From Minisyncoccota bacterium (lineage in GTDB: Bacteria; Patescibacteriota; Minisyncoccia; Phycocordibacterales; Phycocordibacteraceae): DNA of 64,000 nt. This document shows, piece after piece, positions 31,051 to 35,892 of this stretch; within the stretch, counting starts at the first letter, position 1; each line of letters opens with the position of its first letter. The translations under genes and the position numbers were made by a program. The notes under the pieces were generated by a model. The model was not told the origin of the DNA, searched no databases, and saw nothing but the letters and a program-made list of their open reading frames with translations. Location of the stretch: the NCBI GenBank assembly GCA_035627595.1, contig DASPLK010000002.1:1824-65823 (forward strand), given 5' to 3'.

Positions 31051-31848
31051 TTAGTCCTCGACCTCAATTTCGAAAGTGAGGCGGTTGTTGTTTTCGTTGG
31101 ACTCGTTGACGTCTTCACCGCTGTCGATCTCAATTTTTACATCGTTCTCGCCATCACGGGGACGATCGTAGCCCAGAGTGAAGTCAGCAAACTGACCGGG
31201 CATGAGCGATACCTGCTCGCGGGACTTGTAGGTGTAGCGCGGGCGGGTCGGAAGTTCTGCTTCGAACTGCCACCGGCCGCTCTCGTTCGTGCCGGTATTG
31301 GTCACGCGGAACTTGAACGCAGGACGCTCGTCCTCAGGGACAGTTGAGTCCTTCACAAACGAGTCGGTCGAACTCGTGCGGAGATACCCGACCTCGACAA
31401 GGCGAACCGTAAGATCGGCTTTGCCATAAAGGTTCCGAGTGCCCGGTACCGGGACTGCAATCACAGTCGGGGTCGTAGGCTGTGTAGGCGTCACAGTCTG
31501 GGAAGGAGTTGACGGAACAGGGTAGGTGGTTGTTTCTACCGGATCGGTAGAGGTGGCACTCTCCTCATCTTCATCATTCCTTTCATTCTCAAATGGGACG
31601 CTTTCTCCTGGAACGACCTCAAGGTCATTGTCTCCCTCATCGCCTCCGAAGATAGACGAGAAGTACACGTTAGCTGCGCCGAGGCGGGAAGCCGTATCCG
31701 GGAGGATGCGGGCAGCGTAGATAGCAAGCGTAATACCAATAAACAGAAGCGCGACGAAGCCGACGACGGCAAGGCCGTTAATCGCGGCCCGGCGGGTGCC
31801 TGTTGGGCGCTCGACGGTCGTTGTGGTGGTATGGGTCATGGGTTCCAT
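31051..31848 (-). CDS. Membrane-anchored acidic hypothetical protein (possible CARDB-like C-terminal domain)
   Basis: N-terminal TM (LAVVGFVALLFIGITLAIYAA). D/E-rich linker. Thr/Pro-rich segment. C-terminal beta-rich domain ending NNNRLTFEIEV. Confidence 0.45.
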   Translation of the reverse strand: MEPMTHTTTTTVERPTGTRRAAINGLAVVGFVALLFIGITLAIYAARILPDTASRLGAANVYFSSIFGGDEGDNDLEVVPGESVPFENERNDEDEESATSTDPVETTTYPVPSTPSQTVTPTQPTTPTVIAVPVPGTRNLYGKADLTVRLVEVGYLRTSSTDSFVKDSTVPEDERPAFKFRVTNTGTNESGRWQFEAELPTRPRYTYKSREQVSLMPGQFADFTLGYDRPRDGENDVKIEIDSGEDVNESNENNNRLTFEIEVED

Positions 31849-31950
31849 ATGCTCACATATGTACCATAGCCTATATTCTTTGTCAAATCTGTGGTAAAAG
31901 CTGAAAACTTGACAAAAGAGATAATCTTATGTAGTTATATGTAAGAACAT

Positions 31951-32607
31951 ATGGCACAGGTTCACGACAGCAAGGAGGCCTCAGGGCTGCTCGCACAGGT
32001 ATTCGCAAGGAAGTTCAGCTTCGTTGCGGCCTTTACGCTTGTATTTTTTGTGACCTTCTCGGTGCTCCAGGCGTTTGAGCTGGTGCCTGAGGAGATTGCA
32101 AAAGAGGAAGTAAAGGAGGGGCGCCTCACTGCATCAGTCGCTGAGACGGTAAAGGCGCTTCCGGAGTATCCGACGCGTATTGAGATCCCGGCTATTGAGA
32201 TGAATGCGGAGATTGCGAACCCGACGTCGACAAATGTTGCGGTACTTGATCGCGCGCTCCTGAAGACGGCGGTCCGCTATCCGACGTCGGCACGACTTGG
32301 CGAAGAAGGGAACGTTATCCTTTTCGGCCACTCGAGCTATCTTCCGGTCGTGAACAATGAGGCATATAAGATCTTCAATGAAATTCAGAAGCTTGAAGAG
32401 GGTGATCGCATCACCGTCTATGGCACCGAAACTGTATACGTATACGAGGTGGATGCCGTAGAAGAGAAGGATGCTGAAGCAGATGCAATCCCACTAACCG
32501 TAGGGGAGCCGACGCTAACCCTTTCGACTTGCGATTCGTTCGGAAAGAAAACCGACCGGTTCGTTGTTACCGCAAAGCTTGTGGGAAGCCATCCGATCGA
32601 GGACTAA
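31951..32607 (+). CDS. Sortase family transpeptidase
   Basis: N-terminal membrane anchor. The catalytic triad is arranged in sortase order: ILFGH (His), TLTLSTCD (TLxTC Cys), and DRFVVTAKL (Arg). Confidence 0.75.
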   Translation: MAQVHDSKEASGLLAQVFARKFSFVAAFTLVFFVTFSVLQAFELVPEEIAKEEVKEGRLTASVAETVKALPEYPTRIEIPAIEMNAEIANPTSTNVAVLDRALLKTAVRYPTSARLGEEGNVILFGHSSYLPVVNNEAYKIFNEIQKLEEGDRITVYGTETVYVYEVDAVEEKDAEADAIPLTVGEPTLTLSTCDSFGKKTDRFVVTAKLVGSHPIED

Positions 32608-32721
32608 GGTCCCCGTTGGATGGCTCGTCGCAAGATGAGAAGTTCGGCCGCGAAAGCGGAAGCGAGCGAATGTTCAAACGTGCTCCCAATTTCGGGTTCA
32701 GCACAAGCAAGGAGAACAGAG

Positions 32722-33705
32722 ATGAAGAAGCGCCTTCTGACTACCGCGCTTTCCATCGCTCTCGTCGCGCTGCCCACTCAATTCGTGGGAGCATCGGCGG
32801 TGATGGCGATGGAGCCGGCTGGGCAGTCATTCTGTCCGGACGGAATCGAAAGCGGCGAGGAACTCGCCCGAAAGCTTGATGCTTCGCTGGCGATCGACCC
32901 GCAGGGCAGCCGGCCGCTTGAAGGCTGTCACGCGAACCCTATCGAGTTCCTGGTGGCCTTCAATGCTGCCGATCGACAAGAAGGTCTGACCCACGTCAAC
33001 CAGCTCCCAGCCTATGCCAGGAAGCTGGTCCCCGTGGAAGTGGACCGGACGCTCGAGTACCAGTCGTCTTGCATCCGCGTGATGTCGGGCGGCAGGAGGG
33101 CAGTCGAGATGGGTTGTGTTACGCGCTCGCTGCGTCGCGGGGAAGTGATCTACATGAACCCCGATACGCAGACGAAGGTCCTGTGGAGCGGCTGCGCCAA
33201 TCCCGGGTTCGCCCCAAGCCTCGAGCTCATCGTCGTGGGCAGGGAGTGCATCCGCATTCGGGTACCCCCGCTGCCTGTCGGCACCGTCGCGCGTGGCGGG
33301 TACATCGGTCCGCGCCTGCTTCCGGGCCGCTGCCACGCGCTCCGGCTTCCGGGTGCCGAAGATCGCATCTTCGACCTCCCGGAAGAATGTCCGATGGGCG
33401 TTCGCGAGCGTGAAGGTCGGCTGGTCCCGATCGTTTGTGACTGGACCGCCGTCGAACGCAACACGAGCCGGATCATGGGACAACCCGTGCAGATCCAGAA
33501 CGTGAGCTTCAGCTTCGTCGTCAGGGAGACGGACGGTTTCGACTGGTACCTTCCTCCCGAGGCGGTCGAGGGCCATGCCGCACTCTGTTTCGAGCTTCCG
33601 AACGGCGACATCGTCACGTTTTCGGTCAGCGAACGGAACTACGTGGACGGCGAGTACGTGGTTACTGAAGCGGACATCCGCAACAATACCCACGACATCG
33701 GCTGA
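32722..33705 (+). CDS. Secreted Cys/Arg-rich hypothetical protein encoded in a high-GC island
   Basis: Signal peptide (MKKRLLTTALSIALVALP). Codon usage dominated by GCC/CGC/CCG, unlike the neighbours. The opposite-strand W/R-rich ORF is an artefact. Confidence 0.45.
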   Translation: MKKRLLTTALSIALVALPTQFVGASAVMAMEPAGQSFCPDGIESGEELARKLDASLAIDPQGSRPLEGCHANPIEFLVAFNAADRQEGLTHVNQLPAYARKLVPVEVDRTLEYQSSCIRVMSGGRRAVEMGCVTRSLRRGEVIYMNPDTQTKVLWSGCANPGFAPSLELIVVGRECIRIRVPPLPVGTVARGGYIGPRLLPGRCHALRLPGAEDRIFDLPEECPMGVREREGRLVPIVCDWTAVERNTSRIMGQPVQIQNVSFSFVVRETDGFDWYLPPEAVEGHAALCFELPNGDIVTFSVSERNYVDGEYVVTEADIRNNTHDIG

Positions 33706-33819
33706 TTGTTGGTGCGTGCGGGGCTTAAAACCCCCGCACGTCACCTCCATCTCTTTCTCCTTTTTTATACGCTGCGAAAGCAGCAGGGAATTATTTCTTA
33801 TCACTTTACTGAAACACCT

Positions 33820-35892
33820 ATGGAAAGCATCGTCGCCAAAAGCCGATTCTCGAAATCCAAACCGATTCTTGTCGGCGTGTTCGCCGTGCTCGTAACGCTC
33901 GCAAGCGGTATGGCACTCGCGTTCGCACTCGGATTTACGACCCCGGAGAAATTGATGGCACAGGTCACGCCACAGCCGCCATGCTGCACACCGCAGCCAC
34001 CGCAGCCACCTCCACCACCGCCACCTCCACCACCGCCAACACCTCCGGTCACTCCACAGCCTCCCTGCTGCGTGCCTCCACCGCCTCCACCGCCGCCACC
34101 TCCACCACCACCTCCACCACCTCCACCACCTCCGCCACCACCTCCACCACCTCCACCTCCTCCGCCACCGCCACCGCCGGTAGTCGCGCAGTGTGTCTAC
34201 TTGCGTGCAAACAAGAGCACTATTTCGGCACCAGGCGAAGCAGTCGTCCTTAGCTGGAAGACCATTAATGGTGTATCTGCATCCATCAATAATGGAGTCG
34301 GTGCTGTTTCTCCGGTCGGGGAGGGTTCTATAACCGTTAATCCGACAGGGGACACTACGTATACTCTTACCGTCAACGGCATCATCGGCCAGGCCGATTG
34401 TGAGACGAGTATCACTATTGGTGATACGCAGCCAGCTGCGCGTTGTGTTGCATTTGCTGCAAGCCATGAGCAAATCACACCGGGCCAGGCCGTCACGCTT
34501 ACCTGGGAGACCGAGAACGCTACCCGCGCCTCGATTAACCAGAACATCGGTCAGGTAGCTCTATCGGGTTCCATGACGGTCAACCCGACCCAGACCACGA
34601 CCTACATCCTTACTGTTGAGGGCGTAAATGGGCCAGTCGATTGTCAGGATACAGTAGTTGTCGATGATGGACCTCCTCCGTCCGGTCCTCGCTGTATCTA
34701 CCTAAGGGCTAGCGATACAACTATTGAGGAAGGACAGGAGATCACCCTTACCTGGGAGACCGAAAGGGCATCGCGCGTCGAACTCAACCAGGGTATCGGT
34801 CGTGTTGCCGCTGACGGTTCTCGTGAGGTTAGCCCAGATGAGGACACGACCTATGTTCTCTCAGTGTATGACGACGAAGATGGCGAAGCCGCTGATCTCA
34901 TCGACACCTGCCAGGTGAGCGTTTCTCTCGATGACGACGACGATGATGATGGAGGCGGCGGTGGCGGTGGCGGAAGCCGCAGGCCGCGTGTCGTACTTGA
35001 TGTAGACACCATTGAGCCTGAGCCACCGCTCTCCTTCGTGTACCTCTCTGAGATGCCGTACACCGGTCTTGATCTCGGTCCTATGGGTACCGCTGTCTAC
35101 TGGCTCATGCTGATCGGCTGGAGCGCAGCAGCTGCATACCTCACGCTCTTCCACATCATGCCGTTCGCGCTCCGTAGGGTCCGCACCTTCGGCACGGATG
35201 TTCATGGCGTCCTCAATAGCGATCATGCTCCAGAGGCGCACGAGGAGACCGTGATGCATTCCGCATCGCATGCAGTACCTGCTGCACATCCTCCGGCATC
35301 GCATGCACCTGCACACGCTGATGCAAGCCACTTCCGGGGCTACACCTCTAAGGAGGGCTTCCGCTCCTTCGCGCAGACCGATACGCTTACGATCGATGAC
35401 ATCGTAAAGGGTCTATCTCGCGAAAGCGCGCAGGCACCAGTACACCAGGAGCCAGTAGTACAGGCATCGGTATACCAGGCGCCAATCGCACAGGCGCAGA
35501 TTGAGCCGGTCATCGTACCGAACACAGAGCGCATCCAGGAGCAGACCGCCGCTCAGATGGAGATCCATCACGACGTTCCAGCATTCATCCAGGCACTTCT
35601 TGCAGGTGACCGTGATACGGTCTTCGGCATGCTGCGCCAGGTGAATCGTACGGGCGGCGACTCTGAGACCTTCGTGACCCATGCGGTCTGCGCGCTTGAC
35701 GATGCGTACCGCGCACGTCTTGAGGGCACCCCGTGCCATCCAGAGATTCTCCGCGCTACCGAGGATTGTGCTACACCATTCCTTGAGAAGGTGATCGTAT
35801 CCCTTGCGACCGCAGTAGACTCGAGCTACTCAACGGGCGTGACAGGCGCAAAACTTGCGCTCACTCGTGCGCTCTCCGTTGTAAACGGATAA
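33820..35892 (+). CDS. Large surface protein: signal anchor, ~60-aa poly-Pro linker, 3 tandem Ig-like repeats, Asp/Gly-rich spacer, internal PYTG-TM-RRVR segment, His-rich C-terminal region
   Basis: Start chosen at MESIVAKSRF. Three ~100-aa repeats (CVYLRANKSTISAPGEAVVLSWKT..., CVAFAASHEQITPGQAVTLTWET..., CIYLRASDTTIEEGQEITLTWET...). LSEMPYTGLDLG is followed by a 25-aa hydrophobic stretch and then RRVR. Confidence 0.6.
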   Translation: MESIVAKSRFSKSKPILVGVFAVLVTLASGMALAFALGFTTPEKLMAQVTPQPPCCTPQPPQPPPPPPPPPPPTPPVTPQPPCCVPPPPPPPPPPPPPPPPPPPPPPPPPPPPPPPPPPPVVAQCVYLRANKSTISAPGEAVVLSWKTINGVSASINNGVGAVSPVGEGSITVNPTGDTTYTLTVNGIIGQADCETSITIGDTQPAARCVAFAASHEQITPGQAVTLTWETENATRASINQNIGQVALSGSMTVNPTQTTTYILTVEGVNGPVDCQDTVVVDDGPPPSGPRCIYLRASDTTIEEGQEITLTWETERASRVELNQGIGRVAADGSREVSPDEDTTYVLSVYDDEDGEAADLIDTCQVSVSLDDDDDDDGGGGGGGGSRRPRVVLDVDTIEPEPPLSFVYLSEMPYTGLDLGPMGTAVYWLMLIGWSAAAAYLTLFHIMPFALRRVRTFGTDVHGVLNSDHAPEAHEETVMHSASHAVPAAHPPASHAPAHADASHFRGYTSKEGFRSFAQTDTLTIDDIVKGLSRESAQAPVHQEPVVQASVYQAPIAQAQIEPVIVPNTERIQEQTAAQMEIHHDVPAFIQALLAGDRDTVFGMLRQVNRTGGDSETFVTHAVCALDDAYRARLEGTPCHPEILRATEDCATPFLEKVIVSLATAVDSSYSTGVTGAKLALTRALSVVNG
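33972..34178 (+). repeat. CCN trinucleotide (poly-proline-coding) low-complexity tract
   Basis: About 200 nt of near-pure CCA/CCG/CCT codons. It produces the spurious antisense W/R-rich ORF 32827..34473. Confidence 0.8.

Follow-up and report, generated by a model that had tools for sequence, protein, structure and literature searches.

A conserved four-gene cluster in an uncultured bacterium of the Paceibacterota (CPR) encodes a sortase that adjoins what is probably its single substrate, a 690-aa surface protein whose sorting signal is internal and is followed by a long cytoplasmic tail. We consider it probable that the locus represents a dedicated system of the Paceibacterota (Parcubacteria, Kaiserbacteria-type CPR), in which one membrane-anchored sortase serves a single cognate surface protein, the product of the second gene downstream. 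The CPR, or Patescibacteria, account for much of bacterial diversity, yet little is known of how their envelopes are built or how they attach. The locus offers a testable CPR sortase-substrate pair with the signal YLS(Q/E)xPYTG, and at least 201 species-level genomes keep it at a core position.

The cluster occupies positions 31051–35892 of the window, the whole stretch of 64,000 nucleotides that was analysed, and an ORF check confirmed its four genes (Table 1). A first-pass annotation had placed a sortase with a His, TLxTC Cys and Arg triad between a divergently transcribed, membrane-anchored acidic protein and a secreted Cys-rich protein, followed by a surface protein in which a short motif, a hydrophobic segment and RRVR form a tripartite module; all of these elements were borne out. 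The sortase, the only one in the window, matches PF04203 with 83.2 bits (E 1.6e-23; gathering score 26.6), and NCBI lists a protein 100% identical to it under the name "sortase [Candidatus Paceibacterota bacterium]". Its triad residues, H127 in FGHSS, C194 in TLSTC and R203 in DRFVV, are each at least 90% conserved among 58 orthologues. The nearest solved structure is that of C. perfringens SrtD (4d70, E 9e-10), and the triad aligns with the catalytic residues of 4d70 and 2kw8. Among the NCBIfam class models (A–F and GN) the sortase falls far below every cut-off, scoring best with class E (48.5/160), followed by C (42.9/160), SrtD (41/140), D (39.5/165), F (37.5/166) and GN (17.4/158); the generic sortase model TIGR01076 alone was passed (39.6/39.35). 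By these scores the enzyme belongs to none of the curated classes.

Table 1. Positions of the cluster genes and of their features in the window.
Feature	Coordinates	Strand	Remarks
Acidic extracellular CARDB protein with N-terminal membrane anchor	31051–31848	-	divergent from sortase; conserved cluster member
Sortase (cysteine transpeptidase)	31951–32607	+	N-terminal TM anchor aa 22–42
Sortase catalytic residues	32329–32331; 32530–32532; 32557–32559	+	H127; C194; R203
Secreted Cys-rich protein	32722–33705	+	signal-peptide-like N-terminus, 10 conserved Cys
Probable sortase substrate with internal sorting signal	33820–35892	+	690 aa
N-terminal signal peptide or signal anchor	33865–33936	+	KSRFSKSK precedes; read from sequence
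Polyproline with two PPCC motifs	33976–34185	+	PPCC at 33976–33990 and 34060–34074
Three Ig-like repeats	34186–34929	+	~85 aa each, bracketed by Cys pairs; variable ectodomain
Asp/Gly-rich linker and basic RRPRVVL segment	34930–35034	+	before sorting signal
Sorting-signal motif FVYLSEMPYTGLDLGP	35035–35082	+	pentapeptide MPYTG 35053–35067
TM helix, then basic stop-transfer RRVR	35083–35184	+	hydrophobic 30 residues 35083–35172, RRVR 35173–35184
Cytoplasmic linker	35185–35571	+	variable His/Ala/Pro-rich segments around conserved motif
Conserved linker motif RGYxSxxGFRSFA..LTIDDIVKGLSR	35335–35421	+	
Conserved C-terminal cytoplasmic helical domain	35572–35889	+	aa 585–690, ~105 aa

The 690-aa protein starts with a basic stretch and a 24-residue hydrophobic segment, which by sequence reading are kept in full-length orthologues, and runs in the order signal anchor, PPCC and polyproline, three Ig-like repeats, FVYLSEMPYTGLDLGP, TM helix, RRVR and a 240-aa tail. 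The PPCC and polyproline segment, for which we propose the role of a hinge-like, disulfide-linked stalk, is present in most orthologues and is replaced by GDGGG repeats in some. Beyond it the ectodomain is variable: among orthologues it measures from ~160 to 1316 aa and contains Ig-like domains, SpaA_2 (PF19403) or no folded domains, the L002-type orthologues having a Pro-rich stalk alone, without a folded ectodomain. The N-terminal signal, the Cys-bracketed Ig-like repeats and the SpaA_2 domains of some orthologues are as in known sortase substrates. A G-rich run and then a basic segment precede the signal, and both are conserved. Public gene calls for these substrate proteins, all named "hypothetical", start after the polyproline or glycine runs; the starts are placed too late, and automated pipelines therefore miss the substrate signal peptide.

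The sorting signal itself consists of MPYTG, the 30 hydrophobic residues and RRVR, with the scissile bond predicted to lie between T and G. As the first-pass annotation anticipated, the PYTG segment is conserved in orthologous surface proteins: xPxTG was found in 140/140 loci with P, T and G fixed and Y or Q between P and T (IPYTG 95, VPYTG 26, LPYTG 7, TPYTG 6, MPYTG 5, IPQTG 1), although these figures are inflated, since the DNA-scan patterns contained the motif. Among 120 protein matches the residue between P and T is Y, Q or K, and position 1 is I, V, L, M, T or A. L24, S25, P28, T30, G31, L32, L34 and G35 are invariant in A1, and the TM helix, which an AF2 model places at model residues 36–81 with pLDDT >90, is unusually conserved at G, Y, W, L, Y, F and P positions. 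The residues flanking the pentapeptide and the TM helix are far more conserved than in ordinary sorting signals, and this could reflect a structural or interaction role besides, or instead of, sortase recognition. In a six-frame scan of the window the 690-aa protein alone showed xPxT[GASN] plus a hydrophobic segment in a real gene, and no second candidate substrate was found in the window and ~1.2 Mb of flanks. The 690-aa protein matched neither of the anchor models PF00746 and TIGR01167 (E<=0.1, Pfam and NCBIfam), the 54-aa signal and its canonical-type relatives had no NCBIfam match at E<=10, and no description of a YLSx-PYTG signal with a long cytoplasmic tail was found in the curated models or the literature searched.

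Four distant loci (L137–L140) bear directly on the nature of this signal. There the protein ends 33–37 aa after YLSQ[VI]PYTG, so that beyond the motif it has just a TM segment and a short charged tail, which is the canonical C-terminal architecture. L139 and L140 are short contigs and gene position is readable for L137 and L138, where the flank suffices to place the short-tailed motif protein between the sortase and thrS. Since the motif is a canonical C-terminal signal in these loci, xPYTG is very probably a genuine sortase signal, and the long tail is a lineage-specific addition. Of 75 related loci whose flank is long enough, 74 have a sortase just upstream of the motif protein, made up of 52/52 species-representative loci with >4.5 kb of flank and 22/23 metagenome loci of more distant relatives. 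Each cluster has a single motif-bearing gene. The comparison across related genomes proposed in the first-pass annotation thus supports its reading.

The tail of the window protein had been described as a His-rich domain of ~230 aa. The protein does carry 14 His there, but they fall in the variable linker and are not conserved; a more apt description of the tail is that of a conserved helical, clamp-loader-collar-like domain preceded by a variable linker. The linker has low pLDDT in the AF2 model apart from short helices. In a predicted fold comparison the terminal domain resembles clamp-loader domain III (the collar), with matches to gamma/tau, delta, delta' and RFC. The clamp-loader collar is an oligomerisation domain. 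PF12169 matched just 3/39 tail-domain members, with a best E of 0.055, and hhalign of the tail domain against E. coli gamma gave E 0.069, both below significance; these weak similarities, to PF12169 and to the start of E. coli gamma domain III, agree in register. A tail-domain profile search of PDB sequences returned nothing relevant, and the 690-aa protein has no match to an AAA+ ATPase (domains I/II), its tail domain being preceded by the TM helix and the disordered linker.

In the mechanism that we propose, the substrate would be exported via its N-terminal signal and retained in the membrane through the hydrophobic segment and the basic stop-transfer located after (F/Y)(V/L)YLS(Q/E)-x-P-Y-T-G-L-D-L-G-P. 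Cys194 of the sortase would attack the Thr-Gly bond of xPYTG, YLSQIPYTGLDLG being the peptide sequence expected to be cleaved by the sortase domain, and the ectodomain, a presumptive disulfide-knotted polyproline stalk with variable Ig-like or SpaA-like domains, would be passed to a cell-envelope nucleophile, most likely peptidoglycan. In the long-tailed lineage the signal is followed by 250–370 conserved cytoplasmic residues, ending in the helical collar-fold domain, and cleavage would therefore release an ectodomain linked to the wall and leave a stable remnant, anchored in the membrane and starting at Gly. Ahead of cleavage the cytoplasmic domain would oligomerise or bring the precursor into position, and afterwards it may report or act. 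The sequences show the gene content, the conservation of motif and triad, the linkage, the canonical-type relatives and the predicted fold, from which we infer the cleavage, the acceptor, the oligomerisation, any function of the remnant and the fate of both halves. We know of no characterised sortase substrate with a large folded domain after the signal. A more ambitious reading, which we hold to be possible but rather unlikely, makes the sortase the maturation enzyme of a two-part precursor, yielding a wall stalk or adhesin and a membrane protein whose clamp-loader-collar-like cytoplasmic domain oligomerises and signals envelope assembly inward, in the boldest version to the replication machinery encoded in the neighbourhood. 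If true, such two-part maturation, at a core locus of a large CPR clade, would combine processing and signalling in a way not known for any sortase.

So unusual an architecture might be suspected to be an assembly or frameshift artefact, in which an ordinary C-terminally anchored surface protein has been fused to a downstream cytoplasmic gene, and the gene does contain long, error-prone homopolymeric codon runs (polyPro, polyGly). Assemblies made independently from many samples and species, however, all contain this continuous ORF. The 690-aa protein has 240 residues counted from RRVR to its end, members of the close clade always have 252–321 aa after the motif, and conservation of the long-tailed ORF at E<=1e-30 extends to 201 GTDB species genomes and to 147 representatives (50% identity clusters). 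A long-tailed, uninterrupted ORF kept in well over 100 species is no frameshift artefact; no indel makes the signal C-terminal in the long-tailed lineage, the internal position claimed in the first-pass annotation is real, and the fusion, with a negligible probability in our estimation, was rejected on these comparative data. A different objection is that the adjacency of the two genes is simply the inherited order of a collinear clade, the sortase serving unrelated substrates elsewhere and the PYTG likeness being coincidental. Much of the synteny says little, since it comes mostly from collinear genomes where gyrB, thrS and dnaE are conserved too, and these three genes border the cluster at nearly every locus; in addition, L133, a distant locus, has no sortase near its motif protein, and the substrate scans covered just the window and flanks. 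Independent support for the linkage is therefore provided mainly by the distant set and by rearranged loci, chiefly L083 and a few others. The four genes of L083 (sortase, Cys-rich, substrate and CARDB) have shifted as a unit, away from gyrB, thrS and dnaE, and stay together in the new context, while the pairing of sortase and substrate holds in far more divergent, low-GC relatives. As xPxTG, TM segment and basic residues exactly fit the sortase rule and are fixed, and as canonical C-terminal variants exist, mere inheritance of gene order, already weakened by these findings, strikes us as very unlikely.

Harder to dismiss, if still improbable in our judgement, is the view that the long-tailed proteins are no longer cleaved, their motif being a relic of evolution or serving for docking. 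The product would then be an intact two-TM protein acting as an envelope-spanning scaffold or receptor, with the stalk and Ig domains as its extracellular loop and an oligomerising domain in the cytoplasm, and the sortase would bind it or act elsewhere. The unusual conservation of the pentapeptide flanks and TM helix is consistent with this view, as are the large, well-folded and conserved cytoplasmic domain and the L002-type proteins, whose Pro-rich stalk without a folded ectodomain would be an odd cargo for display. Against it, P, T and G are fixed while x varies, which is the constraint expected of a live sortase site; the sortase triad is conserved in the same genomes, the window and ~1.2 Mb flanks hold no alternative candidate substrate, and the canonical C-terminal relatives use the same motif beside the same sortase. 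The collar-like domain might also dock on the clamp loader or replisome, so that the protein tethers the envelope to DNA replication or signals between them. This idea, which is compatible with the sortase reading, draws on the fold match to gamma/tau, delta, delta' and RFC domain III, on the PF12169 and E. coli gamma domain III hints in the same register, and on the dnaE and gyrB genes adjoining the substrate gene in nearly all genomes. Yet the sequence similarity is not significant (E 0.055–0.069), there is no AAA+ module, L083 lost the neighbourhood and kept the cluster, housekeeping neighbours are no evidence of function, and self-oligomerisation is the simplest role of a collar-type domain; we would give the idea hardly any credence.

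The dedicated sortase-substrate system that we favour shares with canonical LPXTG sorting (S. aureus SrtA/protein A) the N-terminal signal peptide, [LIVM]PxTG, hydrophobic segment and basic residues of the substrate as well as a membrane-anchored sortase with a His/Cys/Arg triad. It differs in having the signal ~240 residues from the C-terminus and in a fixed extended context, YLSx-PYTG-LDLGP, with a sortase in no curated class and a substrate unmatched by LPXTG-anchor models. The class GN "marine sortase" (TIGR03784) treated by Haft and by Comfort & Clubb is said to be a dedicated sortase with a single adjacent cognate target. It likewise pairs one sortase gene with one target bearing a lineage-specific motif variant, whereas the present case involves a TIGR03784 score of 17.4/158, a CPR host, another motif and a long cytoplasmic extension on the target. 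By sequence the sortase is closest to class D/E sortases (4d70; B. anthracis 2kw8, 2ln7), whose catalytic His, Cys and Arg align with its own, but at just E 1e-9 to 1e-6, and the motif here is PYTG, not LPNTA or LAxTG. A class C pilus locus, which would have two or three pilin genes with a pilin-motif Lys/E-box beside a class C sortase, is not indicated, with a single motif-bearing gene per cluster and a class C score of 42.9/160. Compared with clamp-loader domain III (DnaX gamma/tau, delta, delta', RFC; PF12169), the tail domain is membrane-tethered, lacks AAA+ and shows sequence similarity below significance. In S. gordonii, as summarised in PMC11326707, the C-terminal peptide ("C-pep") left by SrtA is sensed by a two-component system, so that, as in our proposal, a membrane remnant of sortase cleavage has a function of its own; the S. 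gordonii remnant is a short peptide that a kinase distinct from it reads, whereas the one predicted here would itself carry a ~105-aa folded domain.

The locus would widen the concept of a sorting signal, the same signal being canonical in one group and standing before a 250–370-residue cytoplasmic module in its sister group, and the two forms provide a natural experiment on the capacities of the post-cleavage remnant. To our knowledge, the sortase, exosortase, archaeosortase and rhombosortase signals described so far are all short C-terminal domains. More speculatively, a PYTG-specific sortase might serve protein engineers as an orthogonal ligase.

Of the two remaining members of the cluster, the Cys-rich protein has the signal-peptide-like N-terminus and 10 Cys expected of the secreted protein first described; its gene is present in many versions of the cluster and missing from some, and its fold, perhaps a helical N-terminal part and a beta-sandwich, is uncertain. 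The divergently encoded protein has the N-terminal TM segment and acidic character attributed to it (44 D+E vs 23 K+R) and ends in a CARDB beta-sandwich domain (Pfam match, 33.9 bits). Nearly all related loci whose flank is long enough have its orthologue next to the sortase, and the gene stays with the cluster in the rearranged locus L083.

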